This document shows positions 2,693 to 28,223 of a stretch of DNA of 64,000 nt, in pieces. The DNA is taken from positions 210,417 to 274,416 of the forward strand of contig CAXXWX010000003.1 in assembly GCA_963675745.2 (NCBI GenBank). Reading direction: 5' to 3'. Each line of letters begins with the position of its first letter. The stretch's first letter is position 1. The notes under the pieces were generated by a model, which worked only from the letters and a program-made list of their open reading frames with translations, was not told the DNA's origin and made no database searches. The translations under genes were made by a program, and so were the position numbers. The stretch is from Phycisphaerae bacterium. GTDB lineage: Bacteria > Planctomycetota > Phycisphaerae > UBA1845 > Fen-1342.

Positions 2693-4798
2693 CTAGCCAC
2701 CCGCCAGCAGCGCGACAAACGGATCGACGTCGCCATTGTTGATCGTGCCGTCGTCGTTGATGTCAGCCGCCGCGGCGTCGCAGTCCGGGTACGCCAGAGC
2801 ATATGCATCGGGATCGGTCAACGCCAAGACGAACGGGTCGATGTCGCCGTTGTTCACCGCGCCGTCGCAATTGAGGTCGCCCAACTCCTGCGGGTCGCTC
2901 GTGATTGCCTCTCCACCGCCGAGCAGACACACGTCATCGATTTCGATGTCCGAGATCGGGCCATCAACGCCGAGCAACTCGAAGAGCATGCTGACCTGCG
3001 AGAGATCGACCGCGTCAGAGATGTCGGTCATGGGAATCTCGACCACGTGCCACTGTCCGTTACGAACGAAGCCGTACGGGTCGTTCCCGTTTTCGAACTT
3101 GATCCACTTCTGGCCAATATCGTCGACATTGCCGCTGCGCATACCAAGGAAGAACGGGGCCGTCGAACTGGTCTTCATCGCCAGGTGCAGCGTGCTTTCC
3201 GGGTAGCGAAAGGCCGTGAGGTTGTACTTGATCGTGGGTGTGAACGCCGCGCCAAACCAGGTCAGGCCCGGCGTCGAGTAGTACGACAGACTGGCGGAAC
3301 CCTCGAAGGGGGCTTGAACACCCGGCTGTAATGTGTTCTCCCAGATGTAAAACTCCCCGTCCACGCCGAGCGCGTATTCGCCGGCGGTCTTGTGGCTCGG
3401 ATCTTCGGTGAAGATGCCGAAACTCCCATTCTCCGGCGTCGCGCGCGCCACGCTTGGCGACCAATACACATTGTCGATCCCAAACTCGAAGGTGGCCGGC
3501 GGAGCATCGCCCGCGATCATGAACAGTTGATGGACGGTATTGAAATCGACGTTGAGGAACGCGTTCAGCGGGATGACCACTTCGTGCCAGTTACCGTCGC
3601 GCACCAGGCCGAACGACTGTTCGCCATCGATGAACTGTACCCAACTCTCACCCGCGGCCGAACTCTTGATGCCGATCTTGAATGGCGCCGTCGAGCTTGT
3701 CTTCATGTGCAAGTGCAGGTGACCGTCGGAGTAATTCTGCATGTTACGATCGATGTGTGAAAACACGCCCATGCCGAACCAAGCGCCGGCCGCGGCGGTC
3801 ATGTTCCACGCCTCACTACCCTCATACGCATCAACCGGCCCCGCGGTCAGGTTGTTCCATAAATACAGCGACGCATCAACATCGTACGTGACACTATTGT
3901 TGACCGTAGTAGTTTCTGTGAATACACCGAAGTTCTCTATCTCGGCGACATCTTCCCCGAAATACAGCTCCGTATCACCGTTGTCGTACAGACGTATGTA
4001 GTCAACGTACATTCGGCCCGGGAACGGGGCCGTGATCAACGCCGGATCAGTAATCTCGACGAAGTTCCAGCCACCAACCGATACATTGGCGATGATGTAC
4101 ATGGGCGCGTGGAATTCCTCGAGCGAGTGGGTCTCAATATCGCTGATGTCAATCTCCCAGAATTGGGTACCATCGACTGACGTGCGGATGTGCGTCGGTG
4201 TCCACTCCACGGCGAAGATGTGGTAGTCGTCATAGAGATCCACGGGCCAATCGATCGAGCCGCCGAAGTCAGCCTGGCTGCCCTCAAAATCCCAAAACAC
4301 GTGCGCCCCCACACGGCGGTTGACCACACCCGCAAGGAACGCGGCCCGACTGCCCACTTCCATAATGTCGAGCTCGCCGCAGCCCGGCCACGGAATCTGA
4401 CCGACGTTGTTGCCCAAGAGCCAGAAAGCGGGCCACATGCCATTGTCCACGTCGGGCAGCTTTATTCGCGCCTCGAGCGTGCCGTATTTGAACGCCATGC
4501 GCCCATGCGTCACCAGGCGTGAGGAGGTGAACTCCTTGCCACCCAGGAAGTTTTCGCGACGCGCTTCGATCACCAGATTGCCGCTTTCGATATACGCGTT
4601 TTCGGGGCGGGCGGTGTGATATTGCAGTTCACCGTTGCCGAAGCCGCTACCACCAACGTTGTACGTCCAGGTTGAATGGTCGATGTTGGGATCGGTGAAC
4701 TCGTCAGACCACACCAGCGTCTGGGCGCCGGCCAACGGCGAACTCACCAACAGTGCGGCGATCCCCAAGCCACACCACGCTACCTGTTGAACCTTCAT
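2693..4798 (-). CDS. Secreted GH16 (laminarinase-type) glycoside hydrolase with two repeated beta-sandwich/CBM-like modules and a C-terminal dockerin-like domain
   Basis: Signal peptide, LVWSDEF, GNGELQY, WPAFW and catalytic GELDIME. Two repeats of FGxFTE...WxN...WFG...LHLxMKTSSTAPF. Tail GDLNCDGAVNNGDIDPFV...DINDDGTINNGDVDPFVALL. Confidence 0.88.
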   Translation of the reverse strand: MKVQQVAWCGLGIAALLVSSPLAGAQTLVWSDEFTDPNIDHSTWTYNVGGSGFGNGELQYHTARPENAYIESGNLVIEARRENFLGGKEFTSSRLVTHGRMAFKYGTLEARIKLPDVDNGMWPAFWLLGNNVGQIPWPGCGELDIMEVGSRAAFLAGVVNRRVGAHVFWDFEGSQADFGGSIDWPVDLYDDYHIFAVEWTPTHIRTSVDGTQFWEIDISDIETHSLEEFHAPMYIIANVSVGGWNFVEITDPALITAPFPGRMYVDYIRLYDNGDTELYFGEDVAEIENFGVFTETTTVNNSVTYDVDASLYLWNNLTAGPVDAYEGSEAWNMTAAAGAWFGMGVFSHIDRNMQNYSDGHLHLHMKTSSTAPFKIGIKSSAAGESWVQFIDGEQSFGLVRDGNWHEVVIPLNAFLNVDFNTVHQLFMIAGDAPPATFEFGIDNVYWSPSVARATPENGSFGIFTEDPSHKTAGEYALGVDGEFYIWENTLQPGVQAPFEGSASLSYYSTPGLTWFGAAFTPTIKYNLTAFRYPESTLHLAMKTSSTAPFFLGMRSGNVDDIGQKWIKFENGNDPYGFVRNGQWHVVEIPMTDISDAVDLSQVSMLFELLGVDGPISDIEIDDVCLLGGGEAITSDPQELGDLNCDGAVNNGDIDPFVLALTDPDAYALAYPDCDAAAADINDDGTINNGDVDPFVALLAGG

Positions 4799-4923
4799 CT
4801 TTCGCCGTCCTTATGTCGCGTAGTAAGAGACACGTGTGTTGTCGTGGCTATACCACGACACCTATCACATCGTAGTCAAAGCCGGGATTGAACACAACGA
4901 AACCGTAGGCTAACGCCGCCGTC

Positions 4924-4936
4924 CGTAACTGTTACG
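4924..4936. promoter_or_regulatory. Palindromic LacI-type operator candidate CGTAACTGTTACG
   Basis: Perfect 6+1+6 palindrome between the divergent GH16 genes. Related copies at 4980-4992, 6890-6902 and 18988-19000. Confidence 0.6.
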
Positions 4937-4979
4937 TTTTGCATAAAAGAGCCACAAGCGTGACTGGTCCTCTTTGGAG

Positions 4980-4992
4980 TGAAACAGTTACA
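4980..4992. promoter_or_regulatory. Operator candidate TGAAACAGTTACA
   Basis: Second copy of the AACAGTT-core motif in the same divergent intergenic region. Confidence 0.55.
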
Positions 4993-5285: not shown

Positions 5286-6761
5286 TTGATGAAGCGCCTG
5301 AGGAGCGATCTGATGCGGCGGTACATTCTGCACAGCACGGCGGCAATCCTGGTCAGTATCGCCACGACTACGGGGGCGAGGGCCCAGTGCCAACTCGCCA
5401 ACCCGAGCTTCGAACTGCTCGGACAAGACGGCACCAACTTCGCCGGCTGGGAGCAGTACGGCAACGTCGAAATATCAACAGCTCTCGCTCCCCATGGCCA
5501 GTACTCCGCCAGGCTGTCCGGCAACTTCACCGGCGCCTGGAATCTCTCAGCATACTGGCAACCACTCGACTCAGATCCGGGGGAGCGCTGGCGCGTCGCC
5601 GTGCGCGTCGGCCACAACTCGTCCAACCCGCTGACAGGCGATACGCGGGCCATCCTCAATGTCGAGTGGCGTGACCAGAATGATGACCTGATCGACTACG
5701 AATCCCATGTCATCGCCGACGCATCGACACCACCCGACACGATGCTTCGCATTGAGCTGGAGACCGCCGCCGCACCCGCCGGCACCGTGTCCACGCGCCT
5801 GCTGCTGGGCGTGCTTCAGGGGCCGACAAGTGACCCAGGCGCGGCGTATTACGACCTCGCCGAGTTCAACAGCCTGACCACGCCCACAATCGATGACATT
5901 CAATGGAACGACTTCCCGGGTGGACGCATGCTGACGTTTGCTGACCACGTGTGGCGTGTCAAAGGGCCCGGCTACTACGGCCCCGGCCCCAGCCTGTTCG
6001 CCGACTCCGCCAGCCACATCTGGGTCGACGCGCAGGAGCGCCTGCACATGACCATCAAGCGCGTCAGCGACTCGTGGTACAGCACCGAGATTGCGACGGC
6101 GGAACCGCTTGGATATGGCGACTATATCTTCACCACGGTTGGCCGCCCGGACACGTGGGACGATAACGTCGTGCTCGGGCTGTTCACGTTTCAGTATCCC
6201 GTGTGCTGGGACCCGGCCAACCCGTGGAATCTGCACAACGAGTTTGATATCGAACTCAGCCGCTGGAACTCGCCCGGCAACTCGATGGGCCAGTTCGTCG
6301 CCCAGCCGTGGGACTACCCCGGCAACATGAGCCGCTACAACATGGATTTCAGCGGCGGCGGGCTGACCAGTCATGCCTTCCGCTGGCTGCCAGACCGCAT
6401 CGAGTGCCGAGCCTGGTACGGCGGCCCGACCGACGAGTCAGCGGAGTCGTTGGTTCACAACTGGGCGTACTACGGCCCGCACATTCCGCGCCCCGAGCAG
6501 CCGCGCGTACACATCAACTTCTGGCAGCTCAACGGCCCACCGGCAAGCGGCGCCGACCACGAGGCGATTATCGACACGTTCACTTTCATACCATCCTGCG
6601 ACGACAGCAACAGCGAAGTCCCCTGCTTCGCGTTCTGCCTGAGTGGCCCCGACACAGCAATCCCCACCTCCTGCGCGGCGTTCGATCTTGCCGGCGACAA
6701 CGACACAGACCTCCACGACGCCGCCCTGTTTCAGCGATTCTTCGCGCCGACAAATCCGTAA
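5286..6761 (+). CDS. Secreted GH16-like glycoside hydrolase with N-terminal CBM4/9-like module and C-terminal EF-hand/dockerin-like motif
   Basis: Signal peptide, LANPSFE...GW module and catalytic NEFDIELSRW (E-x-D-x-E). Tail CLSGPD...FDLAGDNDTDLHDAALFQ. Start uncertain (5286/5289/5313). Confidence 0.75.
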   Translation: MMKRLRSDLMRRYILHSTAAILVSIATTTGARAQCQLANPSFELLGQDGTNFAGWEQYGNVEISTALAPHGQYSARLSGNFTGAWNLSAYWQPLDSDPGERWRVAVRVGHNSSNPLTGDTRAILNVEWRDQNDDLIDYESHVIADASTPPDTMLRIELETAAAPAGTVSTRLLLGVLQGPTSDPGAAYYDLAEFNSLTTPTIDDIQWNDFPGGRMLTFADHVWRVKGPGYYGPGPSLFADSASHIWVDAQERLHMTIKRVSDSWYSTEIATAEPLGYGDYIFTTVGRPDTWDDNVVLGLFTFQYPVCWDPANPWNLHNEFDIELSRWNSPGNSMGQFVAQPWDYPGNMSRYNMDFSGGGLTSHAFRWLPDRIECRAWYGGPTDESAESLVHNWAYYGPHIPRPEQPRVHINFWQLNGPPASGADHEAIIDTFTFIPSCDDSNSEVPCFAFCLSGPDTAIPTSCAAFDLAGDNDTDLHDAALFQRFFAPTNP

Positions 6762-6856
6762 CCCGCGCCCATCCCATCTCATGCGGCATATTATAGGACG
6801 TGTGGGCAATATCCGCCCGACGAGCAGAATCTTCCGCAAAAAGTGCTGGAACGAGT

Positions 6857-6902
6857 TTGACGTGTGCCCGATACAATGTTACATTGTTTCGTAATAGTTA
6901 CG
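6857..6902 (+). promoter_or_regulatory. Sigma70-type promoter of LacI gene 1 with adjacent operator candidate
   Basis: TTGACG (6857-6862), 17 nt, TACATT (6880-6885), then CGTAATAGTTACG (6890-6902). Confidence 0.6.
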
Positions 6903-6946
6903 GTAACAGTATATGCACTTGTTACCGTCAGTGAGGAGTTCATTTC

Positions 6947-8062
6947 ATGGCGTCAGTTCGTGATATCGCCGAGCAGGCGGGCGTCTCAATCGCCACAGTA
7001 TCTCGCGCGCTGAACAATGATGCCGGCGTGAGCAGTAGTACGCGAGAACGCGTGCTCTCGATCGCCAATGGCGTTGGTTATGCGGCAACCGTTGGCCGGC
7101 GCGCGGCCAGCCATATTGGATTCGCCTACACCGGTGAGCAGAACTTCACCCATGCCTTTGAGGCCGCCGTACTGGAGGGTGTCGCCAAGGCCCTCGGCAG
7201 CAGCGGCCACAGCATGGTGCTGATGAACCTCAAACGTTCCAGGATGCCGGGTGAAAACTTCACACAGATGTTCATGCGCAACGGGGTGCGCGGCGTGATC
7301 TTGCGCGTGACGGCCGAATCTCGCGATCTGTGTCATGAGATCGCCGCCGAGCGCTTTCCGCATGTAGTTCTTGCGGAGCGATTCGAATCGCCCGACGTCT
7401 GCTGCATTGACTGCGATTCAAAGCCGGACAGCTTGCGAGCGGTCGAACACCTGATCGCACTTGGACACCGACGGATCGCGTTTGCGGTTCATAACGTACC
7501 AGACCGCGACCATCAGGACCGTTTTGAGGGCTATCGCGAGGCGCTGGCGCTGCACGACCTGCCGTTCGAGGCCAACTGGGTGTATCGGCAACCGGCGACG
7601 CTGTCCGGCGGCGCTACGGCGTTCAAGATGATCATGAGCGAGCCGAACCGCCCCACCGCGATCTACTTCGCCGACTGGCTGCCCGCGGTCGGCGCGATCA
7701 AAGCCGCCCATGAGTTGGGCGTACGTGTGCCCGACGGCATTTCGATTGTGGGGTTTGACGATGCGCACATGCGGCACACGGTGCATCCGCCGTTGACAGC
7801 CGTATGTCAGAACGCCATCCAACTGGGCAGCGAGGCAGCGTTGCGGTTATCGCAGATGCTGGCCGGACGTCGTCGCGCGCCGTTCCAGATTACACTGCCG
7901 AGTTTCTTCGAGATCAACGAATCCAGCGGCCCGCCCCCGGCCAGGCCGGAGCGCGTGAACCCCAACGGTCACAGCGCCGCGTACCGGCCGAGCGCGGGCG
8001 ACGTCGCCAGGGACACCACAGATTCAGCGGCTTCCGATGGTGCCGCTCGCCGAGACCCGTGA
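6947..8062 (+). CDS. LacI-family transcriptional regulator
   Basis: HTH SVRDIAEQAGVSIATVSRALN; LGHRRIAF; PTAIY; VPDGISIVGFDD; PPLTAV. SD GAGGAG upstream. Confidence 0.95.
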   Translation: MASVRDIAEQAGVSIATVSRALNNDAGVSSSTRERVLSIANGVGYAATVGRRAASHIGFAYTGEQNFTHAFEAAVLEGVAKALGSSGHSMVLMNLKRSRMPGENFTQMFMRNGVRGVILRVTAESRDLCHEIAAERFPHVVLAERFESPDVCCIDCDSKPDSLRAVEHLIALGHRRIAFAVHNVPDRDHQDRFEGYREALALHDLPFEANWVYRQPATLSGGATAFKMIMSEPNRPTAIYFADWLPAVGAIKAAHELGVRVPDGISIVGFDDAHMRHTVHPPLTAVCQNAIQLGSEAALRLSQMLAGRRRAPFQITLPSFFEINESSGPPPARPERVNPNGHSAAYRPSAGDVARDTTDSAASDGAARRDP

Positions 8063-8078
8063 CACCAGGAGCACAGCC

Positions 8079-9215
8079 ATGTCATCAACCAGACGGATTC
8101 ACGCCATGGCGCGACGGCGTTGCCGATTGCACCGACCGGCGTTCACCTTGATCGAGTTGCTAGTCGTTGTCGCAATCATCGCCTTGCTGATCTCGATTCT
8201 GCTGCCATCACTCGGCCGCGCCCGGGAGCAGGCGCGACTGGTGACCTGTCTTGCGCACATGCGCGGCACCGGGCAACTCGTCATGCTGTTCGCCAATGAC
8301 CACGACGGCCGCATGCAACTGACGTCCACGGAGTTTGCGGTCCAGAACGCCGACGCGTCGCGTTCGAAGTATGCCTACGGCGACAGCGGCGAATTGCTGG
8401 CCTGGCCGGTGGCGCTGGCGCAGGCCAACGGCCTGCCCATTCGCAACAACTGGGACTGGGGCGTGCGCGCCGACAACTACTTCTACGCAAAGGAACGCGA
8501 GAAATTCATCTCGAAACAATTCAAGCTCATGCAATGTCCATCGGACCGGGCGCGTATTGCAACGCCCTTCTTCTCACGCGGTGACGGTCTGCGCGGGGCA
8601 GGTAATCCGGACGACGATCACTCACAGGACAACAGCCCCGGGCCACGCACCGCTTATTGGGGCCTGTTGAGCTTTGCGATCAACGAGGACATCACCGGAG
8701 CTGAGTATTCGAGTCTGAATGCAACCTGGGGTTCCTGCTGGCGCGCGGTGTACAACGATGGTGAGTGGACTGAGTGCATCGGCGAAGAGCGCTATGGCCC
8801 CAGCAGCCCCTGCTTCGGCCGAAACGGCTTTCGCCTGCGCGGCGAGCTGGACAAGATCGAATCATCGGCAAACCTGATGCTGCTCGTCGATGCGGGTCCG
8901 GAAAACGACGCGATACCGACACAGGCGGAGGACGAGTGGACCCACGTGAACCTGATCCACAGCGGCGCGGGAGCCGAAGGTCCGTTTCTCGGCCACTCGC
9001 TGCAGGCCAATGCGTCAGCCACAGGGACGCGCGTACCCATGCGGCGGCACGTGGACGGCAATGTGAACGTGCTGTATGTCGACGGGCACGGCGCCACCGC
9101 CAAGATGGTCGAGACAAGTTCCGAGAACGCCTACAACGTCGAAGTACCGAAAAGATACGCCCCCCGCGTACGTGTGTCGCCATATTCGATGGGCAACATC
9201 AATGTTGACGATTAA
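8079..9215 (+). CDS. Prepilin-type N-terminal cleavage/methylation protein (DUF1559-like, H-X9-DG motif)
   Basis: AFTLIELLVVVAIIALLISILLPSLGRAREQAR..C; CPSD; RHVDGNVNVLYVDGH. AGGAG SD before ATG 8079. Confidence 0.88.
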   Translation: MSSTRRIHAMARRRCRLHRPAFTLIELLVVVAIIALLISILLPSLGRAREQARLVTCLAHMRGTGQLVMLFANDHDGRMQLTSTEFAVQNADASRSKYAYGDSGELLAWPVALAQANGLPIRNNWDWGVRADNYFYAKEREKFISKQFKLMQCPSDRARIATPFFSRGDGLRGAGNPDDDHSQDNSPGPRTAYWGLLSFAINEDITGAEYSSLNATWGSCWRAVYNDGEWTECIGEERYGPSSPCFGRNGFRLRGELDKIESSANLMLLVDAGPENDAIPTQAEDEWTHVNLIHSGAGAEGPFLGHSLQANASATGTRVPMRRHVDGNVNVLYVDGHGATAKMVETSSENAYNVEVPKRYAPRVRVSPYSMGNINVDD

Positions 9216-9491
9216 CCCTGGTGAGGGCGCGATGTTTGCTGGGATGGAGAGTTAAACCCTCGACGCAGGACACTGAATAACGTGACCCCAATCTCGCCAG
9301 AGGTGTGATTCGGCGGCCTGATGGTGGGCACGCGGGTCGCGAAATCAGAAGGAGGAAGGGAGTCTCAGAGAGCTTTCGAGCACCGGAGATGGCGAGCCGC
9401 GCCTTTGGGTTCGCACAACGAGTGAAGCGCCGCCGGGTCGCGCCACAGCGCGGCGGACCTGCGGCCTGGAAAGGGATCAGGAGTGTCTGAC

Positions 9492-12833: not shown

Positions 12834-12861
12834 ACACGCTCAGCCTGAATGAGCGGATTCT

Positions 12862-12898: not shown

Positions 12899-13090
12899 TG
12901 TGTCTCCGATGCACGGAACCGCTGAACTGTTTTGAAGGGCCGCCGCCGGGTGTTAAACTGGAGGTAATCTCTTGTGGCGGTGGCAACGGGCAGTCAGAAG
13001 TCGTCGCCGGCGGGAAGACGCAGCACCGCCATAACGTGCTGGTGAACACACTCGCATTGCCGCGCCGTGCGGCGGGCCACGCGACACTCG

Positions 13091-16705: not shown

Positions 16706-16730
16706 GCCGATGCACTGTACTCGTTCAGCC

Positions 16731-17875: not shown

Positions 17876-18940
17876 CTAACTGTCCAGCGCCGCCGCCGTC
17901 GGCGCATCAGCATCGACCGGCGAAGACGCCGCAACCCGGCGCGACCCCGCCGGCGGGGCCGTGGACTGGTTGATCTCGAGGAACGTGCGCGTCGTCTTCT
18001 GAAGACCGCCCGTGTCCTGTCCTTTGACGGTCCGAGACAGCCAGCGTCCCGCTTCGTAGCCGAGCGCACCCGCATCCTGACAGACGGCGGTCAGCGTCGG
18101 GTAAACGCTGTGGCGCATGTTGCTGTCGTCGAACCCGATGATCGACATGTCGTCCGGCACACGAACGCCGAGTTGCTGCGCCTTGTTCACGGCCCCGACC
18201 GCCAGCAGCGGGTCAGCGAAGTAGATCGCCGTGGGCGGGTCGATCATGCTCTGCGCCAGCTTCATAACCGTCGCCCCGCCCGCCAGCGAGATTTTCTGCC
18301 GGAAGACAAGACGCTCGTCGAACGGCAGATTGTGGTTATCCAACGCTGACTTGTATCCGGCCATGCGGTCAATGTGGTCACGGTCGGTGACGGTGTGCGT
18401 GGCGAACGCGATGCGCTGGTGGCCGAGCGCGATCAGATACTCGATGGCGCGGGTACTGTCGGCCATGGAGTCGTAGTCGATGTAGTTCGTGTCGGGCGAG
18501 TCAAAGCGCTCGCTGATCACGACGTGCGGGAATCCCTCGCGCGCAATCGCGCCGCACACATCGCGCGTCTTCGCCGTCGTGCGCAGGACAACACCGCGCA
18601 CCCCCTTGCGCATGAAGAACTGCGTGTAGGTCTCGTCCTGCTCTTTGTCACGCTGAAGATTGAGGATTACCACGTCAAAGCGGCACTCGTCGAGGCCGCG
18701 CACGACGCCGTGCAGAACCGCCGCATCGAACGCATCGGCGAGGGTGGATTCGGCGGTATAGGCGAAGGCGATGTTGGTGGTGACGCGCCGGCCGATGGTC
18801 GGGACATAGCCGAAGCGGTTGGCGATTGCCAGGACCCGCGCGCGCGTATCCGGATTGACCGCGGAGTCATTGTTCAGCGCCCTGGATACGGTGCTGATGG
18901 AGACACCGGCTTCTTCGGCGATTTTCCGAACGGATGCCAC
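17876..18940 (-). CDS. LacI-family transcriptional regulator (paralog of 6947-8062)
   Basis: GTG start at 18940 gives (M)ASVRKIAEEAGVSISTVSRALNND, matching the paralog's start. Shares FMRxGVRGV, ERFxSPD, PTAIYFAD and GFDD. Confidence 0.93.
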   Translation of the reverse strand: MASVRKIAEEAGVSISTVSRALNNDSAVNPDTRARVLAIANRFGYVPTIGRRVTTNIAFAYTAESTLADAFDAAVLHGVVRGLDECRFDVVILNLQRDKEQDETYTQFFMRKGVRGVVLRTTAKTRDVCGAIAREGFPHVVISERFDSPDTNYIDYDSMADSTRAIEYLIALGHQRIAFATHTVTDRDHIDRMAGYKSALDNHNLPFDERLVFRQKISLAGGATVMKLAQSMIDPPTAIYFADPLLAVGAVNKAQQLGVRVPDDMSIIGFDDSNMRHSVYPTLTAVCQDAGALGYEAGRWLSRTVKGQDTGGLQKTTRTFLEINQSTAPPAGSRRVAASSPVDADAPTAAALDS

Positions 18941-18987
18941 GGCACGCTCGCCACTGTTGGTTCGACAACGTTCTTGGAAACAGTTCT

Positions 18988-19035
18988 TGAAACAGTTGCA
19001 GGGTTTAGTGTACGATGTCGATCGCGGCAGGTCAA
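18988..19035 (-). promoter_or_regulatory. Sigma70-type promoter of LacI gene 2 with adjacent operator candidate
   Basis: Minus strand TTGACC (19035-19030), 17 nt, TACACT (19012-19007). TGAAACAGTTGCA at 18988-19000, with a weaker GGAAACAGTTC just downstream. Confidence 0.62.
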
Positions 19036-19246: not shown

Positions 19247-21655
19247 ATGGGAAGTGCTGCACTGCATCTGCTTACGCTCGGGCTGTTGGCTGCGACTGCG
19301 GGTGCGGCTGTGTCTCCGCCCGACGACCAGCGAGCGTTGTCGTTTGTGATGGACGGCGCGTGGCGTGGCGACGGCATCTGTTATGGCCCCCACCGCGATG
19401 GTCAGCGGCCCGGTGGCCCTGGACCGTCATCGGAACAGCTACGCGAAGACCTGCGCATCATGCGGCCGCATTGGCGTATCTTTCGGCTCTACGCCGTCGG
19501 CGATGAGACTGAGACAGTCCTGCGCACAATCCGCGACGAGCACCTCGGCATGAAGGTCTTGCTCGGCGCCTGGATCGATCCTGAACAGCCCGGCGACAGC
19601 GAACATCCCGATGCGCAAACGCAGGCCCGTAATCGCCGACAGCTCGAACTGGCCGGGCAGCTCGCAAACCGCTATCCCGAAGTCGTGCTCGGCATCAGCG
19701 TGGGGAATGAAACACAGGTCTCCTGGTCATCCCATCGTGTCCGCCCGGAAGTACTGGTCGCCTACGTTCGCCAAGTCCGGGCGACGACAAGCGTGCCGAT
19801 CACCGTCGCCGACGACTACACTTTCTGGCTCGAACCGCGGGCGGCGCAATTGGCACGCGAAGTCGACTTCATTCACGCGCACATTTACGCCATGTGGCGC
19901 GGCAAGACCCTGGACGAAGCGCTCCCGTTCACACAGATGCAGTACGCCGCCCTGACGACGCATTATCCCAAACACCCGATCATCATCGGTGAGCTCGGCT
20001 GGGCGACACAGATGCACAGCGCCGGCGACCAGGCCAAGTACATCAAAGGTCGCGCGGGCATGGCAGAGCAGACGGCGTTCTATGATGCGTTTCTGACTTG
20101 GGCGCGGCGTAAGCGCGTAGCGCACTTCTGGTTTGAGGCTTTTGACGAGAATTGGAAGGGTGGCCCGCACCCCAATGAGGTGGAGAAGCACTGGGGTGTG
20201 TTCAACTCGGACCGCTCACCCAAGGCCGCCATGCAGCCGATGGCCGTCTGGGCGCGCCGCGTGCGAGCGCTGGATTGGATCTGTTACTCCCCTACCAACG
20301 CCGACCCGGATGCGGGTCAAATGCCGACGATCGAGTCGATCCGCGCTGACCTCGCGGCGTTGCGGACCGCCGGATTCAGCGGCTTGATCACGTATGGCTC
20401 AGACGGGGTCCGCGGGCGCGACCTGCCCAAGCTGGCGGTGGATGCCGGCTTCAGTGGCCTGATCATGGGCGTGTGGGACCCGACAAGCGCCGAAGAGCTT
20501 GCCGCCGCCCGGAACGCGGCGCAGCTTGACGAGGTATACGGCTATTGCGTCGGAAACGAGGGGCTGCGCGGCCGGTACAAGATGGATGCGCTGCGCAACG
20601 CGATCGCCGAGCTGAAGCGCGCTACCGGCAAACCCGTTACCACAACGGAGGAAATCGACGACTACGCCGACCCCGCGTTGCGCGCGGTTGGTGACTGGGT
20701 GTTTCCCAACGCGCATCCGGTTTTCCACGGCCGTGTTGATCCCGATCGCGCGGCGGATTGGACGGTCGGCGCGTATGATGAACAGGTGCGCCTGTGCAAG
20801 AACTGGGTCTGGTTCAAGGAAGTGGGGTTGCCGACCGGCGGCGACGAGAACGGCATCCTGTCCCCCGCCGCGCAGGTCAAGTACTACACGGCTCTGGCCA
20901 AGACCCCGGTCATCTTCGCGTATTTCGAGGCGTTCGATCAGCCCTGGAAGGACTGGCGGCCATTTGAAACCCAGTGGGGGCTCTTTACCGCCGAGCGGGA
21001 GCCCAAGCTCCTGGCCAGGCAGTTGATCAAGTCAGGCTTTCCCGAGCGCGGCGTTCACGTGCAGTCCCGGTCGGCGGCGGCCACCGAAACCGACACGCCA
21101 CGCCGCGCGACCCCGTTCTGGGTCTATCGCGACGCGGAGTCTCCCGAGAACCACTTCGAGCCGAGCGGCCTCGACGGTGACACCGGCGACGTGATGATAG
21201 ATGCCCATGTCAGCGACCGGCCTCACTCCGGAACAACCTGTTTGAAGCTCGTCTATACGGCCAAGGGCACCGGGCCGCACAAGTGCGCGTACGACCCGCC
21301 CTGTCGGTGGGCGGGGATTCGCTGGCTACACCCGGCGAAGAACTGGGGCGACAAGGAAGAGCACGCCGGCGCCGGATTCGATCTGCGCGGTTATCATCGA
21401 CTGACATTCTGGGCCCGCGCCGACAAGCCGACACGGGCACAATTCATGGTCGGTGGTCTCGATACGCCATACGGCGACTCGCTCGCATACCCGCACGCCC
21501 TGGTTGCCGAGCTCGAAACAACGTGGCGTCAGTTTGAAATCGACTTGAAAGCCGGCGATCTAAGCCACATTATCGCCGGCTTCGGATGGAGCACGAATTG
21601 GGATTTGAACCCCGACGGTTGCTGCATTTACCTGGATGACATCCGCTTTGAGTAA
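19247..21655 (+). CDS. Secreted tandem GH17-GH17 beta-1,3-glucanase/transglycosylase with C-terminal CBM11-like domain
   Basis: Domain 1: GICYGP, VGNE, IGELGW, FWFEAFDENWK, EKHWG. Domain 2: WICYSP, VGNE, FKEVGLP, YFEAFDQPWK, ETQWG. C-terminal WAGI.W...FDL.GY.RLTFWAR...IYLDDIRFE. Start may be 19112 or 19247. Confidence 0.85.
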   Translation: MGSAALHLLTLGLLAATAGAAVSPPDDQRALSFVMDGAWRGDGICYGPHRDGQRPGGPGPSSEQLREDLRIMRPHWRIFRLYAVGDETETVLRTIRDEHLGMKVLLGAWIDPEQPGDSEHPDAQTQARNRRQLELAGQLANRYPEVVLGISVGNETQVSWSSHRVRPEVLVAYVRQVRATTSVPITVADDYTFWLEPRAAQLAREVDFIHAHIYAMWRGKTLDEALPFTQMQYAALTTHYPKHPIIIGELGWATQMHSAGDQAKYIKGRAGMAEQTAFYDAFLTWARRKRVAHFWFEAFDENWKGGPHPNEVEKHWGVFNSDRSPKAAMQPMAVWARRVRALDWICYSPTNADPDAGQMPTIESIRADLAALRTAGFSGLITYGSDGVRGRDLPKLAVDAGFSGLIMGVWDPTSAEELAAARNAAQLDEVYGYCVGNEGLRGRYKMDALRNAIAELKRATGKPVTTTEEIDDYADPALRAVGDWVFPNAHPVFHGRVDPDRAADWTVGAYDEQVRLCKNWVWFKEVGLPTGGDENGILSPAAQVKYYTALAKTPVIFAYFEAFDQPWKDWRPFETQWGLFTAEREPKLLARQLIKSGFPERGVHVQSRSAAATETDTPRRATPFWVYRDAESPENHFEPSGLDGDTGDVMIDAHVSDRPHSGTTCLKLVYTAKGTGPHKCAYDPPCRWAGIRWLHPAKNWGDKEEHAGAGFDLRGYHRLTFWARADKPTRAQFMVGGLDTPYGDSLAYPHALVAELETTWRQFEIDLKAGDLSHIIAGFGWSTNWDLNPDGCCIYLDDIRFE

Positions 21656-21661
21656 GCTCTG

Positions 21662-23146
21662 ATGCGGCAGTTCAAGAAAGCCCTGCAAACCGCCATCGGC
21701 AGCGCCATGTTGCTGGCCGCATTGGGGCTCGTCGCATTCGGGCCGCGCTCGACGCGCCCCGACGCCGGCGGCCGTACGGTCGTCCGCTACTGGGAGAAGT
21801 GGACCGACTTTGAAGGCGAGGCGATGCGCCGGCTGGTCGGCGTATTTAATGATACGGTCGGGCGCGAGCGCGGCATCTTCGTTGACTACCAGACCACGAC
21901 GCAGATTGATTTGAAAGCGCTGGTTGCCGTATCCGGCGGTGATCCGCCTGACCTGGTGGGTCTCTGGCAACACAACGTCACCAGCTTTGCGTCCAGAGGC
22001 GGGTTGCTGGCACTCGACGAGCGCGCCGCCGCCGCGGGCATCACGGCGGACATGCTCATCCCGATCTACTTCGAGCCCTGCCACTATCACGGCCGCTTGT
22101 ACGGCCTGCCGCTCACGCCGTGGTCGATCGCCCTTTACTACAACAAAGACCTCTTCGCCGAATTCGGCGAGCAGTTGCGTGCCGCCGGCTATGACCCCAA
22201 TCGCCCGCCGCGTACGCTGGATGAGCTCGCCGGCTATTCGCGCGTGATCCACCGCCGCGACAAAAACGGCGACATCACGCTGATGGGTTATCTGCCCGGC
22301 GCCCCGGCCCCATCCATCGCCTGGTACTGCCACACCTGGCCGATCTGGTTCGGCGGGTCGTTCTATGACGCCGATGCGCAGACAGTGCCGGTCGCAAGCG
22401 ATATCTCCATCCGCGCGCACGAGTGGGTACGTGATTTCGAGCAGCAGTTTGGTGTGGCCGACGTACAGAAATTCGAATCGGGCCTCTCGAACTTCAATTC
22501 GCCGGACAATCCGTTCATGAGCGGGCGGCTGGCAATGATGCGCCAAGGACCGTGGTTTGCGAACATGATCCGCCAGTATGCACCCAATCTGAACTGGGCG
22601 GCGGCGCCGTTCCCCACGCACGACGGGAGCGAGATCAGCTTCTGTGGCCAGGACGTGCTCGTCATCCCCGATGGGGCACACCACCCCGACGAGGCCTGGG
22701 CGTTCATCGAATGGCTGTTGACCGGCCCGCCCGTCAACGTCCCATCGGGCCAGGCCACGCCACAGCGGGGCTACGAGTATTACGAGGCAAGAACGCCCGA
22801 CGGCATCGAGCGCCGCCCGATGCCGCCGCTGCGGCCGATCGAGTGGATTTGCTGGATTCACTACAAAAACAGCCCCCTGGTGAACCCGTCGCCCGAGTTC
22901 ATCGAGACACACCCCAGTCCGGCGCTGGCGATCCACGAGCGCTTGGCGCGCCTGCCCGGTGCGCAAACCGAGCCGGGGCTACCCAACTGGATACAGCTCA
23001 GTTCGGAGCTGATCCAGACGTACGCCGACATCTGGGCAACCGGAGCGCCGGTGCGGCCGCGGCTGGAAAGCTGTCAGCAACGCATTGACACCCTCATCGA
23101 GCTCGCCCGCCGACAACAGGCGCGCCTCGGGGAGCAATACCCATGA
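21662..23146 (+). CDS. Carbohydrate ABC transporter substrate-binding protein
   Basis: N-terminal TM anchor; YWEKWTDFEG; GGDPPD; LYGLP..LYYNKDLF; PPRTLDEL; FMSGRLAM..QGPW. Confidence 0.88.
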   Translation: MRQFKKALQTAIGSAMLLAALGLVAFGPRSTRPDAGGRTVVRYWEKWTDFEGEAMRRLVGVFNDTVGRERGIFVDYQTTTQIDLKALVAVSGGDPPDLVGLWQHNVTSFASRGGLLALDERAAAAGITADMLIPIYFEPCHYHGRLYGLPLTPWSIALYYNKDLFAEFGEQLRAAGYDPNRPPRTLDELAGYSRVIHRRDKNGDITLMGYLPGAPAPSIAWYCHTWPIWFGGSFYDADAQTVPVASDISIRAHEWVRDFEQQFGVADVQKFESGLSNFNSPDNPFMSGRLAMMRQGPWFANMIRQYAPNLNWAAAPFPTHDGSEISFCGQDVLVIPDGAHHPDEAWAFIEWLLTGPPVNVPSGQATPQRGYEYYEARTPDGIERRPMPPLRPIEWICWIHYKNSPLVNPSPEFIETHPSPALAIHERLARLPGAQTEPGLPNWIQLSSELIQTYADIWATGAPVRPRLESCQQRIDTLIELARRQQARLGEQYP

Positions 23147-24072
23147 GTGATCCGCGCGGTGCCACTGCAACCAATCGGCGTGACACGCTCACGGGTGTGC
23201 TGTGGATCAGCCCCTGGATCATCGGCTTCTCGGTCTTCATTCTGCTGCCCGTGATCATGTCGGCGTATCTGAGCTTCTGCACGTTTGACGGCGTACGCCG
23301 GCCGATCTTCACCGGTCTCGAAAACCTCTCCACGCTGATCGCTGATCCGCGCTTCTGGAAAGTCCTGAAGAACACGGCGATTTACGCCGCCGTCTCCCTG
23401 CCGGTCGGAACGGTGCTGGCGATCACCATCGCCATTCTGCTCAACCAGCGCGTCCCGGGCCGCGCCCTGTGGCGCGCGATGATCTTTGTGCCGACGCTCG
23501 TCCCACTGGTGGCCTCCGCCATGATCTGGATGTGGATGTTCAATGCCAGCCACGGCCTGATCAACGCCCTGTTTCGCCTGCTCAACTATCTACCGTTTGT
23601 CTCCGGCGTCGATGGACCAAGCTGGTTGACCAGCCAGTACTGGACGATGCCGTCGATGATCCTGCTGAGCTTCTGGGCGATCGGCCATCCGGTGGTGATC
23701 TACCTGGCCGGTTTGCAGGACGTTCCGCGGAGTCTCTATGAAGCGGCTCACGTGGACGGTGCAGGCCCGGGTCAACGTCTCTGGCACGTCACCCTGCCGA
23801 TGATCTCGCCGACCATCTTTTTCAACGTGGTGATGGGCATCATCTATGTCTGGCAGGTGTTCGCCATACCACAGATCATGCTCGAAGGTGGCGGTCCCGG
23901 CCGGAATGCTTATTTCTACACCATGTACCTCTATGACGTGGCGTTTCGCGATTTGCGTTTTGGTTACGCCTGCCTGCTGAGTTGGGTGCAACTGCTGATC
24001 ATCCTGGGCCTCACGGCGCTGGCGTTTCGGCTCAGCAAGAACCTGGTTCACTATCGGGGGGCAGCGCGATGA
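23143..24072 (+). CDS. Carbohydrate ABC transporter permease (MalF/UgpA-like)
   Basis: Multiple TM helices; EAA motif IYLAGLQDVPRSLYEAAHVDGAG; ATGA overlap with the upstream gene. Confidence 0.93.
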   Translation: MSDPRGATATNRRDTLTGVLWISPWIIGFSVFILLPVIMSAYLSFCTFDGVRRPIFTGLENLSTLIADPRFWKVLKNTAIYAAVSLPVGTVLAITIAILLNQRVPGRALWRAMIFVPTLVPLVASAMIWMWMFNASHGLINALFRLLNYLPFVSGVDGPSWLTSQYWTMPSMILLSFWAIGHPVVIYLAGLQDVPRSLYEAAHVDGAGPGQRLWHVTLPMISPTIFFNVVMGIIYVWQVFAIPQIMLEGGGPGRNAYFYTMYLYDVAFRDLRFGYACLLSWVQLLIILGLTALAFRLSKNLVHYRGAAR

Positions 24073-24977
24073 CGGCCGCAACAATCAAGCACATCGTCGC
24101 CACGGGTCTCGTTGCGATCGTTGCCGTGGCGTTCGTCACTCCGTTGGTGTGGATGATCGCCACCAGTCTCAAGCCACAAGAGGAGATCAGCACGGCGGGG
24201 CTCTCGCTGTTGCCCGACGAGCCGTCCAAGCTGCCACGCTACGCATACGAGAACTATTATGCCGGCCGCCCCAAAGCCATCGACAAGGACGGTGTCGAGC
24301 GCGTCGGTTACGAGGGCGTGCTCACCAGTGAAAACGTCCACTTCCTGCTGTACGCCCGCAACACGTTGATCGTCGCGCTGCTCAGCGTCGGCGGCATGGT
24401 GCTTTCGAGCGCCATCTGTGCCTACGGGTTCGCGAAAGTTCAGTGGCGCGGCCGAAACGTCGCCTTCGCGATCATGCTCGCGACGATGATGATCCCGTTC
24501 CCGGCGGTCATGATCCCCACGTACTTCATCTTCAAGAGCCTGGGGCTGATTGGCACGCTCGCGCCGCTGTGGCTGCCCGCGTGCTTCGGCGGCGCGTTCA
24601 ATGTGTTCCTGTTGCGCCAGTTCTTCATGCAGATCCCCAACGAGCTGTCCGAAGCCGCCCGCCTTGACGGGCTGGGACACTGGGGCATTTTCTGGCGCAT
24701 CGTCATCCCGCTCTCACGTCCGGCCCTGGCGGTTGTGGCACTGTTCCACTCGATATACGTCTGGAACGACTTCATCGGTCCGCTGATCTACCTCAACCAT
24801 CAGGACCTGTTTACACTGGCACTGGGCTTGCAGTTCTACGAGTCCCAACATGGCGGCACACCGTGGAATCTGCTCATGGCCGCCTGCACCCTCGTCACCG
24901 CCCCACTGCTGATGCTGTTTGTCATGACTCAGCGGACGTTCATCGAGGGTATCGCCACCACGGGCACGAAGGAGTGA
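24069..24977 (+). CDS. Carbohydrate ABC transporter permease (MalG/UgpE-like)
   Basis: FLLRQFFMQIPNELSEAARLDG; WNDF; ATGA overlap at 24069-24072. Confidence 0.93.
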   Translation: MTAATIKHIVATGLVAIVAVAFVTPLVWMIATSLKPQEEISTAGLSLLPDEPSKLPRYAYENYYAGRPKAIDKDGVERVGYEGVLTSENVHFLLYARNTLIVALLSVGGMVLSSAICAYGFAKVQWRGRNVAFAIMLATMMIPFPAVMIPTYFIFKSLGLIGTLAPLWLPACFGGAFNVFLLRQFFMQIPNELSEAARLDGLGHWGIFWRIVIPLSRPALAVVALFHSIYVWNDFIGPLIYLNHQDLFTLALGLQFYESQHGGTPWNLLMAACTLVTAPLLMLFVMTQRTFIEGIATTGTKE

Positions 24978-25103
24978 CTCGGCCCGGAATTGAGCCGCGC
25001 CGAGCACTGCCCGGCGCGACCACGACGCAGCTACAATGATGAAAGGGATTATTTGGTGTCCACAACTTTCGACTTGATACAACGCGCGAGCGGCGATCTG
25101 AGC

Positions 25104-28100
25104 ATGCCCGATTATCAACTCGAGCAGGACGGCAGCTACCGCATCAACCAGTATGACTCAGCCGCGGCGTTTTGCAGCTTCTTGCCCGGGATTGGTGGGC
25201 CGGCCGGCGTCCCCCTGTGGTGCATGTACGTCAACCGCGCCCAGGCGATTGTGTCTTTCGGCGTACACAACAAGGACAACGCCATCTGCGAGTACCTGCC
25301 GGCAACCTGGGCCTATCAGCTTGTCGGCATTCAGGGCTTTCGCACCTTCTGCAAGATTGACGGCAACTACTATGAGCCATTCCGCGCGCCGGCCGATGGA
25401 CGATCGGGCGCAGCGCGCGCGATGCACATTGAGCCCGATCATCTGACGCTGCGCGAAACAGCCGCACCGCACGGCCTGTCGTTCACCGTGCGCTACTTCG
25501 CCCCCGTGAACCAGCCATTGGGCACGCTTTGTCGACGATTGACCATCACGAACACCGGCGACGAAGCCAAATCGGTGGAGGCGCTCGATGGCCTGCCGCT
25601 GATCTTGCCGGCGGGATTCACCGACCATGGCATCAAGACGATGCGGCACATCCACGAGGCATATGCCGCCGTGCGACTCACTTGCGGTCACGTCCCGTTC
25701 TTCGCCTCGAAGGTCCACGCCCACGATGAAGCCGAGGTGACCGAGGTGCGGCACGGCAACTTCTACGCCGCGTGGACTGTCCGCGATGGCGGCCTGGTAC
25801 CGGTTGAGCCGTACGTCGACCCGCACGTGATCTTCGGCGGTGGGCATGACCTGATCTCACCACGGCGTTTCATTGCCGAGGATGCACTGTCGCGCGAGCA
25901 GCAGATCTGGGAGAACCGACTTCCGTGTGCCCTGGCGCCGATAAGCGCCACACTTGAACCCGGCGCCTCGATCGAGCTGGTTGCCCTGGTCGGCACCGCC
26001 CCCAGCGAGAAGCGCCTGGAGGCTTTCCTCCCACGCTATCAGCGGATCGAAGACTTGGACGCCGCGCGAGAAGAGAGCCGGCGACTGTTTGAGAGCCTTG
26101 TCACTCCCGCATTCACGGTCTCGCGGTATCCGACGTTCGATGCCTATGCGCGGCAGAATTACCTCGACAATGTACTGCGCGGCGGGCGCCCCGAGATGCT
26201 GCCGTCGCGCTCCGGGCCGACGCCGCTGTATCTCTATGCCCGGCGGCACGGTGACCTCGAGCGTGATTACAACTACTTCGTGCTCCCGCCGACGCCCCTC
26301 TCGAGCGGCGCCGGAAACTATCGCGATGTCTGCCAGAATCGACGTAGCGACGTCTGGTTCTATCCGGACCCCGACGCCACCTGCATTCGCATGTTCGTCG
26401 AATTGCTCCAGCCTGATGGCTATAACCCGCTGTCGGTCGAAGGCTATCGCTGGCGCCTCGGGCGCGACGTCGATCCGCTGCGGCACTGCCCGGCGACCGA
26501 CACCGCCGCGCGCGACGCATTCCGCACGCTGCTCGACGACACGTTTGTGCCCGGCGAACTGCTTCATTGGGCGCAGCGTTACGCAGTGCCGCTCGACCAG
26601 CCGCGGGCCTGGCTCGAACGCGTGCTCGGCGACTGCGAGCGCAGCCTGGTGGCCAACGGTCACGCCGGCGGCTACTGGATCGACCATTGGACATACATCA
26701 TCGACCTGCTCGAAGCCTTTGCGGCCGTATATCCCGACCGGGTCGAACAAATGCTCACGGGCGCGGCGGACGTTGGCTGGTTCGACGAGGGCGCGAGCGT
26801 GGCATCCCGGCACGAGAAGTACGTTCGCCGGGGTGATCAGCCGCTTCAGCTCAATGCCGTTCAAACCGGCCGCCAGGCCACCGCTGCGTTGCCGCCCACG
26901 ACAATCCTCGGCAAGCTCTGCGCGCTGGTCGCGATCAAGGCTATCAGCTTTGACTACGCCGGTCGCGGCATCGAGATGGAAGCCGGTCGCCCCGGATGGA
27001 ACGACTCGCTGAACGGCCTGCCAGGCCTGTTCGGGTCCTCCACTTGTGAGGCCGCCGAACTGACACGCCTCGCGGCCTGGCTGCGGGCGGCGCTGCCGAG
27101 CGCGCCGAATACGGAGTTACCGGTCGAAATCGCCGACCTGATCGTCGACGTTGTGGCAGACCTCAAGGCGCCAACCTATGACTGGGATCGGGCCGCGGGA
27201 TTGCGCGAGCGATGTCGCGCGCGGCTGTACGGGGCCGGCGGCGGCGAGACGCGCGTGGTCAGCGGCACGCTGCTCACCGATTTACTGGCCGGCGCTGAAA
27301 GCCGCGGACGCCGGGCGACCAAGAACTCGATCGATAGCGCGCGGGGGCTGATCCACACCTACTATGTCGGCAATCCGCAAAGCCACCCCGACGAGACCAT
27401 CGGCGGATTCGCGTCCGAGCCGTTGCCGCTCTATCTCGAGGGGCAGGTGCATTGGCTGCGCATCCAGCGCAGCGCGGACGACGCGCGCGCGATCTACCAG
27501 GCCGTCCGCAACAGCCCGCTCTTTGACCAGGCCCTGCGGATGTACAAGCTCAATGAGTGTCTCGATGGCCAACCTCCCGAGATCGGCCGGGCACGGACGT
27601 TTACGCGCGGCTGGTTCGAGAATGAGTCAATCTGGCTGCACATGAGCTATAAGTTCCTGCTCGAGTTGCTGCGAGCCGGCCTGCACGCTGAGTTCTTTGA
27701 AGACATCCGCACGATGTTCGTACCATTCATGAACCCGGAGACGTATGGGCGCAGCACGCTCGAGAACTCGTCGTTCATCGGCTCGTCGGCGAATCCCGAC
27801 CCCCACACGCACGGGCGCGGCTTCATCGCCAGACTCAGCGGTTCGACCGCCGAGTTCATTCACATGTGGTTGCTAATGACAGTCGGCCAGCGGCCCTTCC
27901 ACATTGAAAACGACACGCTCCACTTTCAGCTCGAGCCCGTTCTTCCTGGCGAGTGGTTCACCACGCAACCAGAGACGATTTCGTGGCAGGGTGAGAAGGT
28001 GGAAATCCCAGTAAACGCCTTCGCCTGCGCCCTGCTCGGAAACACGTTGCTCGTCTACCACAACCCCACCCGGGCAAACACCTTCGGCCCCAACGCCGTG

Positions 28101-28223
28101 CGGCCGGTGGATTACGTGCTCGACGGCTGTTCCTGCGAGCGACAAGCCGCGGGTCTGGCGGGCGAGCTTGCCGAACGCGTTCGCGCCCGGGCATTCACGC
28201 GCATCGACGTACACCTGGCCTGA
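25104..28223 (+). CDS. Cytoplasmic beta-1,3-glucan phosphorylase (GH161-like)
   Basis: FCSFLPGIGG..GVPLW.MYVNR.Q..SFG; GFRTF; RRHGDLERDYNYF; GNYRDVCQNRR; MEAGRPGWNDSLNGLPG; GWFENESIWLHMSYK; GRGFIARLSGSTAEF. No signal peptide. Confidence 0.8.
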   Translation: MPDYQLEQDGSYRINQYDSAAAFCSFLPGIGGPAGVPLWCMYVNRAQAIVSFGVHNKDNAICEYLPATWAYQLVGIQGFRTFCKIDGNYYEPFRAPADGRSGAARAMHIEPDHLTLRETAAPHGLSFTVRYFAPVNQPLGTLCRRLTITNTGDEAKSVEALDGLPLILPAGFTDHGIKTMRHIHEAYAAVRLTCGHVPFFASKVHAHDEAEVTEVRHGNFYAAWTVRDGGLVPVEPYVDPHVIFGGGHDLISPRRFIAEDALSREQQIWENRLPCALAPISATLEPGASIELVALVGTAPSEKRLEAFLPRYQRIEDLDAAREESRRLFESLVTPAFTVSRYPTFDAYARQNYLDNVLRGGRPEMLPSRSGPTPLYLYARRHGDLERDYNYFVLPPTPLSSGAGNYRDVCQNRRSDVWFYPDPDATCIRMFVELLQPDGYNPLSVEGYRWRLGRDVDPLRHCPATDTAARDAFRTLLDDTFVPGELLHWAQRYAVPLDQPRAWLERVLGDCERSLVANGHAGGYWIDHWTYIIDLLEAFAAVYPDRVEQMLTGAADVGWFDEGASVASRHEKYVRRGDQPLQLNAVQTGRQATAALPPTTILGKLCALVAIKAISFDYAGRGIEMEAGRPGWNDSLNGLPGLFGSSTCEAAELTRLAAWLRAALPSAPNTELPVEIADLIVDVVADLKAPTYDWDRAAGLRERCRARLYGAGGGETRVVSGTLLTDLLAGAESRGRRATKNSIDSARGLIHTYYVGNPQSHPDETIGGFASEPLPLYLEGQVHWLRIQRSADDARAIYQAVRNSPLFDQALRMYKLNECLDGQPPEIGRARTFTRGWFENESIWLHMSYKFLLELLRAGLHAEFFEDIRTMFVPFMNPETYGRSTLENSSFIGSSANPDPHTHGRGFIARLSGSTAEFIHMWLLMTVGQRPFHIENDTLHFQLEPVLPGEWFTTQPETISWQGEKVEIPVNAFACALLGNTLLVYHNPTRANTFGPNAVRPVDYVLDGCSCERQAAGLAGELAERVRARAFTRIDVHLA

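Follow-up and report, generated by a model that had tools for sequence, protein, structure and literature searches.

How would a planctomycete capture a beta-glucan and bring it across the outer membrane from a locus that holds no SusC/SusD pair? Planctomycete fibres have been seen to bind dextran. Here, we address the question for a 25.5-kb stretch of about 16 genes (2693..28223) from a Phycisphaerae bacterium, lying in a 64,000-nucleotide window (that is, the whole stretch of DNA that was analysed). The stretch is very probably a utilisation locus for beta-glucan, of laminarin or lichenan type, without SusC/D, and it carries a cassette in which the gene for a LacI-family repressor is followed by genes for a pilin-like protein and for a large non-catalytic protein made of nested jelly-roll domains. 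We propose that these two proteins act in a device that captures glucan at the cell surface, an explanation to which we give a probability of roughly 0.55; the pilin might in addition stand in functionally for SusC/D. An earlier note, made from the sequence alone, had listed the genes and had read them as a planctomycete-specific beta-1,3-glucan system in which pilin and dockerin-linked proteins replace SusC/D; all of the listed genes were located by open reading frame (ORF), Pfam and NCBIfam checks, and the reading itself needs several changes.

Gene content and regulation of the locus

The features of the stretch are the following (GH, glycoside hydrolase; CBM, carbohydrate-binding module).

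2693..4798, minus strand: GH16a, laminarinase-type, with signal peptide, GH16 domain (ELDIME), two homologous unnamed modules and a dockerin-like tail
4925..4935, no strand assigned: candidate LacI operator, exact G[AT]AAC[AT]GTT[AT]C
4981..4991, no strand assigned: candidate LacI operator, exact G[AT]AAC[AT]GTT[AT]C
5286..6761, plus strand: lichenase-like GH16-type enzyme, with a CBM-like module (as in the large protein's insert), an E-x-D-x-E domain and a dockerin-like tail; no Pfam match
6857..6913, plus strand: promoter-like site (6857-6885), then candidate operators at 6891 and 6903, upstream of the LacI-pilin-large protein genes
6947..8062, plus strand: LacI-family repressor 1 (Pfam and NCBIfam matches)
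8037..9215, plus strand: pilin-like protein (database start 8079, 378 residues), with N-methyl motif AFTLIE and H-X10-DG
9483..12833, plus strand: large non-catalytic protein ("BIG"), 1113 residues, with signal peptide, four nested homologous jelly-rolls, a CBM-like insert and a dockerin-like tail
13067..14593, plus strand: GH16c (EIDIME) with CBM6 and a dockerin-like tail (Pfam)
14693..16597, minus strand: LamG, clan GH-A TIM barrel and dockerin-like tail; NE and TEYG motifs, weakly GH158/GH2-like
16731..17450, minus strand: PEP-CTERM protein with a candidate sugar-binding domain; homologues in beta-glucan loci of two orders
17876..18943, minus strand: LacI-family repressor 2; the frame is open up to 19153, and translation probably starts near 18940
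18977..18999, no strand assigned: pair of candidate operators in the gap that separates LacI2 from the GH17-ABC-GH161 operon; promoter-like sites overlap them
19247..21655, plus strand: GH17-GH17 followed by a module at the C-terminus; it has a signal peptide and lacks a dockerin tail, and its frame is open from 18374
21662..24977, plus strand: sugar ABC importer (binding protein and two permeases, no ATPase)
24990..28223, plus strand: GH161 beta-1,3-glucan phosphorylase homologue (homology to solved GH161)

Gene families support the earlier reading of the stretch as a beta-1,3-glucan locus with ABC uptake and phosphorolysis, as far as sequence can indicate. GH16a and GH16c, both with E-x-D-x-x-E, are the only PF00722 matches in the whole genome, and the best Protein Data Bank (PDB) match of GH16a is the laminarinase PtLam (E 3.6e-79). 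The third proposed GH16 (5286-6761) has no Pfam match and no single-sequence PDB match; E-x-D-x-E is invariant in its 45 aligned homologues, and the profile of these 45 sequences matches lichenases at E 2.5e-6, with a shallow profile comparison (hhalign) giving a probability of 0.9%. Two of the three GH16 assignments thus hold, and the third protein is better described as lichenase-like by profile. The clan GH-A enzyme (14693-16597) is present as a LamG domain with a TIM barrel, its narrower family being split between similarly weak matches to GH158 (9oro, E 7e-9) and to a GH2-like chain (1.5e-8). GH17-GH17 is a single ORF, fused here and split into two genes in the relatives G233 and G215; its first domain matches PDB 6fcg (E 3e-23), its second has NE and KEVG motifs, and the identity between the halves, traced via relatives, is 25-31%. 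The GH161 homologue matches the solved GH161 enzymes 9h8v (E 5e-182) and 9qqk (1.7e-181, residues 50-987) over its full length, compared with only 5.7e-5 for the phosphorylase 6hq6, and by family it would carry out phosphorolysis. The ABC importer and the two LacI paralogs are likewise present; the ATPase gene of the importer is not in the locus, two MalK-like ATPases are encoded elsewhere in the genome, and the only GH1 match of the genome is on another contig.

In the PEP-CTERM protein, the proposed exosortase signal is above cut-off in both models (PF07589, 22.1 versus 20.7 bits; TIGR02595, 19.2 versus 16), and the genome encodes three exosortases. A full-domain homologue occurs in four of eight GH161 loci fetched from another order. 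Carbohydrate binding by this protein and by the large protein is given as Atlas leads only (0.92), and the PEP-CTERM protein may add specificity for beta-glucan.

The absence of a TonB-dependent receptor and of SusD from the locus, noted earlier, is borne out: Pfam detects neither a SusC-like transporter nor SusD among the locus ORFs, and SusD has no match in the whole metagenome-assembled genome (91% complete, 6% contaminated). A search for a receptor elsewhere gave a single TonB-dependent receptor match genome-wide (706 residues), on another contig, where the gene sits between those for a histidine kinase and an ABC-type binding protein, near GH2 and GH38, and with none of the listed operator-like palindromes (54 genome sites at ≤1 mismatch) beside it. 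Among five cassette-carrying relatives tested, three (94-99% complete) have no such match, and two have one each; on this point, as on synteny (below), the checks that the earlier note had named as possible refutations did not overturn its reading.

The palindrome in question, G[AT]AAC[AT]GTT[AT]C, is found in three intergenic regions of the locus, in two of them near promoter-like sites, although promoter and terminator scans are at chance level (four promoters in the region versus 2.9 expected). Upstream of cassette LacI genes, 7 of 15 regions contain it with ≤1 mismatch, where shuffles average 0.2 and reach 2 at most, and 13 contain it with ≤2 mismatches (mean 2.4, maximum 9); it should be noted, as a point that detracts from these figures, that the motif was derived from this window, that two of the 15 regions come from the window itself, and that the shuffles kept base content only. 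These data suggest a single LacI regulon that would include the pilin and the large protein, and the locus is likely repressed by LacI. A wider regulon was considered and rejected: of the 54 genome sites only three are exact, two of them within the locus.

The pilin-like protein and its large partner

The pilin-like protein scores over cut-off with PF07963 and TIGR02532, has a helix at residues 24-74, and carries Ala rather than Gly before the Phe of its N-methyl motif. The earlier description of an H-X9-DG pilin-like gene is right as to the pilin-like gene and not as to the motif, which reads H-X10-DG; no DUF1559 or H-X9-DG model is among its Pfam/NCBIfam hits at E 0.01, and some homologues bear the H-X9-DG name from JGI. 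Its predicted structure (pLDDT 92.8) has a long first helix and a pilin-like core into which about 200 residues are inserted as a large, conserved, aromatic-rich head. The top 14 rows of the structure search are type IV pilins or pseudopilins, all below the usual trust level (best match: Z 4.3, root-mean-square deviation [rmsd] 3.6, 121 residues aligned), and Foldseek returns no match at E 0.001, which says nothing on novelty. Machinery that could assemble and move a pilus, another check that the earlier note had asked for together with exosortases, is encoded in the genome, with five PilT proteins over cut-off, five secretins, and one prepilin peptidase. One-mismatch palindromes lie near gene starts of a pilus/type II secretion assembly cluster (G000:C6:42739 and C6:45919) and may be there by chance. 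A second pilin-like gene in the window (28616-29350) overlaps or precedes a cysteine desulfurase-like gene, the pair lying at 28616-30501; the pilin-like gene product has an unrelated head and only the N-terminal helix in common with the locus pilin, and was excluded from the locus.

The large protein is predicted to be nearly all beta (pLDDT 90.8, pTM 0.75). With domain boundaries read from sequence and model, and the alignment cut there, its hub domain consists of four separate segments between which three homologous domains are inserted, and in 83 of 83 members a profile of any one of the four jelly-rolls detects the remaining ones. A fifth domain, an insert unrelated to these four, is CBM16/CBM61-like (Z 14.1, rmsd 2.9, 138-139 residues aligned), with CBM4 also matching at Z 13-14. 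In loci of this kind, the same insert is seen again in PEP-CTERM proteins and as the N-terminal part of enzymes. Domain three of the large protein is CBM11-like (Z 10.9, rmsd 3.8, 151 aligned). Pfam and NCBIfam detect no catalytic family, in agreement with the earlier description of a large non-catalytic dockerin protein. The models are consistent with a protein that would bind sugars, bearing in mind that a shared fold by itself shows no function.

Of 301 genomes in the class, 10, all from one order, encode full-length homologues of the large protein, at 13 loci in total. Members of the pilin subfamily occupy 24 places in 15 genomes, which include all 10 with the large protein. Eleven of the 13 large-protein loci have, within 7 kb of the large protein gene, a LacI gene directly followed by a pilin gene of the same subfamily; the two remaining loci are one split by contig ends (G040) and one true exception (G215), where the pilin is 64 kb away. 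In the bacterium's own family, 7 of 18 relatives, each of a different genus, carry GH16, the pilin subfamily, and the large protein together, and the other 11 carry none of the three, these relatives being kin and so not independent. The synteny with glucan enzymes sought in the earlier note thus exists. Database homologues of both proteins are, where they carry a name, mostly assigned to Phycisphaerae, Phycisphaerales or Planctomycetota. Among eight GH161 loci fetched from another order, five hold an unrelated pilin, a count for which pilin density in that order is uncontrolled.

The cassette is not tied to a single polymer. Eight of the 11 cassette loci are of beta-glucan type (GH16, most with GH161, GH1, GH3 or GH17, and ABC or SSF transport), and three, one of them in this genome, are of mannan type (GH130, SSF, GH5-like), whereas the pilin without the large protein occurs in alpha-glucan loci (GH13, GH31, GH57, CBM53); neighbouring ORFs were Pfam-scanned in a selection of 65, 30, and 41 proteins, and G078 was labelled alpha-glucan by gene order and sizes like those of G148:C21. 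The pilins of alpha-glucan loci form one clade (6 of 7 rows, supports 99/97) in a tree of 21 of the 24 places, from which G215, the second G197:C2 copy, and G085:C14 were left out. Strict tracking of substrate by pilin lineage (one pilin, one glycan) is not seen in the trees and was rejected. It looks as if one platform, the cassette, has been put to use on several hexose polymers, the PEP-CTERM protein and the enzymes perhaps conferring the specificity. Of the planctomycete-specific beta-1,3-glucan system proposed earlier, the lineage restriction is retained in a narrower form, the pilin and large-protein families being found in one order only, and the restriction to beta-1,3-glucan is not.

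When the pilin head was co-folded with residues 105-770 of the large protein, the complex scored 0.58, compared with 0.00 for the best of three controls; at least 90% of contacts agree between runs, partner pLDDT is at least 81, and the tail is not in contact. Of 157 solved pairs, 116 attained the mark for a complex, 18 of them with scores ≤0.60; of 215 mismatched pairs, 2 attained it, both with scores ≤0.60. The score lies in this weak range, where passes are more often wrong unless the pair is likely beforehand, and the predicted contact therefore lends the pairing weak support, with the score's range itself a reservation. A mirror test on 25 pilin-large protein pairs gave rho 0.48 (0 of 2000 permutations); it matched proteins to each other by equal length of their contigs and left shared descent uncontrolled, and we give it little weight.

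The same observations bear on a different role. In this view, the pilin would serve type II secretion as a pseudopilin, recognising the tailed proteins of its own locus as cargo and exporting them; the polymer would be cut outside the cell, general porins would admit the oligomers, and the large protein would be just another secreted binder. Within 3 kb, 7 of 27 pilins have both PEP-CTERM and dockerin-tailed genes, more than random placement yields (mean 0.6, and 4 at most in 300 trials), the pilin subfamily pairs with other cargo in alpha-glucan loci, GH16a, GH16c, and the GH-A enzyme have both signal peptides and tails, and contact between a pilin and its cargo would equally yield a weak complex pass. 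However, for dockerin genes taken by themselves the surroundings of pilins show no enrichment (12 of 27 versus mean 7.6, maximum 14), 209 tailed proteins face 27 such pilins, the predicted contact excluded the tail, and a large, conserved, aromatic-rich head exceeds what export needs. On balance we consider a pure export role unlikely.

Three further clusters in this genome resemble the locus in part. A paralogous LacI-pilin-large protein cassette (G000:C23:80605-100861) is accompanied by GDSL esterases, GH5-like, SSF, and GH130 genes, the latter two apparently split over several frames, and by a second pilin of the subfamily. Just before the window, G000:C3:195001-206224 holds glucoamylase-like/DUF3131 enzymes, an ABC importer, a PEP-CTERM protein, a pilin, and a tailed protein with three CBM-like inserts, and is likely a beta-1,2-glucan locus of the same design. 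The cluster at G000:C26:185726-198926 combines a pilin, PEP-CTERM and tailed proteins, several copies of the CBM-like insert, and the GH1 match mentioned above. Elsewhere in the window (38368-50409), an operon encodes alternative complex III and cytochrome c oxidase; the organism therefore likely respires oxygen.

Dockerin-like tails and cohesins

A search with profiles built from the genome's own tails found dockerin-like tails on 209 proteins, C-terminal in 193. The dockerin tag seen earlier on the locus is present, and it is carried by five proteins rather than by the large protein only. The tails have two calcium-loop repeats, and in these repeats, 257 of which were counted, the calcium-loop residues are kept; the tail of GH16c matches PF00404 just below cut-off, and the predicted structure of the tail is helical. 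Repeat positions 17-19 are hydrophobic and free of basic residues, whereas K/R is canonical at these positions in cellulosomal dockerins. Four of the tailed proteins carry haem motifs (cytochromes).

The earlier note had taken the dockerins to assemble the enzymes into a complex, and a cellulosome-like 'planctosome', in which enzymes and large protein would be brought together by docking of their tails on a cohesin scaffold, would follow the proposal made for other Phycisphaerae in passages of PMC6461901. The two calcium-loop repeats and the helical predicted fold would suit such a complex, and one protein elsewhere in the genome combines a cohesin-like domain with a tail, like an adaptor proposed in the same passages. 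This is, however, the only cohesin match genome-wide, with no paralogue, for 209 tails; Pfam, which divergent cohesins could escape, finds no cohesin in the locus or in any of five relatives, and no multi-cohesin scaffoldin in the genome. The occurrence of tails on cytochromes and the lack of basic residues at positions 17-19 count against it as well, and we regard assembly on a scaffold as very improbable. The protein with the cohesin-like domain (G000:C13:85608-87974) has Chlamydia-PMP-type repeats in addition to its own tail and adjoins two PEP-CTERM genes. Three further paralogous exported proteins of 282-293 residues (G000:C26:329899, C16:16998, C15:50031) join an unnamed domain to a dockerin-like tail; they were tried as cohesin-like candidates from their appearance and rejected, having no Pfam match and, for the one of the three tested against the PDB, none better than E 0.025.

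When the GH16-like domain is followed through its 120 best homologues, 36 of these end in PF13860/PF18962 tails, named FlgD-like or T9SS type A sorting domains by their sources, and 6 in dockerin-like tails; of seven homologues inspected, two have an exosortase-type tail. Because homologous enzymes elsewhere end in other sorting tails, the dockerin-like tail appears to fill the slot of a sorting signal. We infer that it is probably a genome-wide tag for export or surface retention and not a link to cohesin, and argue that dockerin-like tails in Phycisphaerae should not be read as cellulosomes.

Proposed mechanism and comparison with known systems

According to the surface-capture explanation, LacI repression of three promoter regions, suggested by the palindrome, would lift when glucan oligomers appear, and four exported endo-glucanases would cut the polymer, an activity that their families predict. 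Their dockerin-like tails would serve in export or surface retention across the genome, independently of cohesin. The pilin would be a subunit of a type IV pilus or pseudopilus, carrying the five-jelly-roll protein as a multivalent glycan platform; for this step there is the observed co-inheritance, a weakly predicted binding of pilin and large protein, and a capacity for sugar binding suggested by the fold. We put the chances that the two proteins form a pilus-borne complex holding polymer at the cell surface at about even. In the least certain step, oligomers might reach the periplasm by retraction of the pilus via a secretin, or through porins after cutting at the surface; import driven by the pilus seems to us possible, if rather doubtful. 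Finally, from what is known of the families (PMC6484121), GH17 would trim the oligomers, the ABC system would import them with an ATPase from elsewhere, and GH161 would release glucose-1-phosphate.

A number of observations weigh against this explanation. Five of the 15 pilin-bearing genomes and 65 of the 75 GH16-bearing genomes of the class have no large protein, GH16 often occurring without the cassette outside the order, and G215 keeps a beta-glucan locus with the large protein and no pilin nearby. In both trees, the pilin and the large protein of the window group with mannan-locus copies (supports 98/95 and 100/99) rather than with other beta-glucan copies, and within that clade partners are shuffled, sister pairs differing between the pilin and large-protein trees; neither protein, therefore, looks like a substrate-fixed SusD equivalent. 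The identity correlation between pilin and large protein over 11 loci (rho 0.69) is only slightly to moderately above that between LacI and large protein (0.51), so that co-inheritance of the cassette explains much of it. Structure searches match the pilin head to no lectin fold, the locus holds no pilus assembly genes, and, as to the tails, one cohesin-like domain does exist in the genome.

Capture without transport is a further alternative, in which pilin and large protein only attach the cell to glucan particles or algal surfaces and short oligomers diffuse in. A type IV-like pilus for glycan attachment is proposed for Akkermansiaceae in passages of PMC13174399, multivalent CBM-like arrays suit adhesion, and in G215 the enzymes and the ABC system are kept without the pilin. 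On the other hand, according to passages of PMC5394234, planctomycete fibres (in another class) bound dextran, which accumulated in the periplasm in an energy-dependent manner, and the present genome has five retraction ATPases. A purely adhesive role strikes us as quite improbable.

In Bacteroidota, a SusC/SusD polysaccharide utilisation locus co-regulates surface binders, endo-glucanases, periplasmic trimming, and import, and a two-gene pair heads loci for different glycans. The present locus is alike in being a probably co-regulated cluster with a conserved two-gene pair found across glycans; it differs in that SusC/D is absent, the pair consists of a pilin-like and a nested jelly-roll protein, control would be by LacI, and import across the inner membrane is by ABC or SSF transporters. 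Gram-positive loci that unite GH161, an ABC importer, and beta-glucosidase or GH16, as described in part of PMC6484121, share with it the placing of GH161 by an ABC importer without ATPase and the laminarinase, whereas here the cell is diderm, GH1 is on another contig, and pilin, PEP-CTERM, and dockerin-tailed proteins are added. The dockerin-like tails recall type I dockerins and the 'planctosome' of passages of PMC6461901 in the duplicated calcium-loop tail on exported Phycisphaerae enzymes, and depart from them in that no multi-cohesin scaffold was found and the tail is spread over 209 proteins of various kinds, with other sorting tails able to take its place. The Akkermansia MUL2 locus, from what passages of PMC13174399 describe, is similar as a locus of a PVC bacterium that ties a pilin-like protein to glycan use without SusC/D, but holds PilM-like assembly genes and an archaeal-pilin-like subunit, while the present cassette stands without assembly genes inside each glycan locus.

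Pilus uptake in planctomycetes is itself a published hypothesis, and the addition made here is the conserved pair of pilin and large protein. According to a 2024 survey, as excerpted, planctomycete clusters of carbohydrate-active enzymes are not functionally characterised (PMC11131199), and the literature searched, which included few subscription papers, contained no paper on the pair. Since the locus supplies two families without names, a contact predicted between them, a probable substrate, and a putative operator, the uptake hypothesis becomes testable with two recombinant proteins. In the 'fishing rod' hypothesis of fibre-mediated uptake (PMC5394234; PMC12078418), pilin-like proteins bind polysaccharide and pull it into the periplasm; the passages concerned name no genes and deal with the class Planctomycetia, whereas here a defined, probably co-regulated gene pair of Phycisphaerae is a candidate. 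We would tentatively suggest that the pilin and the nested five-jelly-roll protein might form the polymer-catching end of a pilus whose retraction would draw glucans and mannans via a secretin into the periplasm, as the replacement for SusC/D in this order, and would then be the first named gene pair for the planctomycete 'fishing rod' route.

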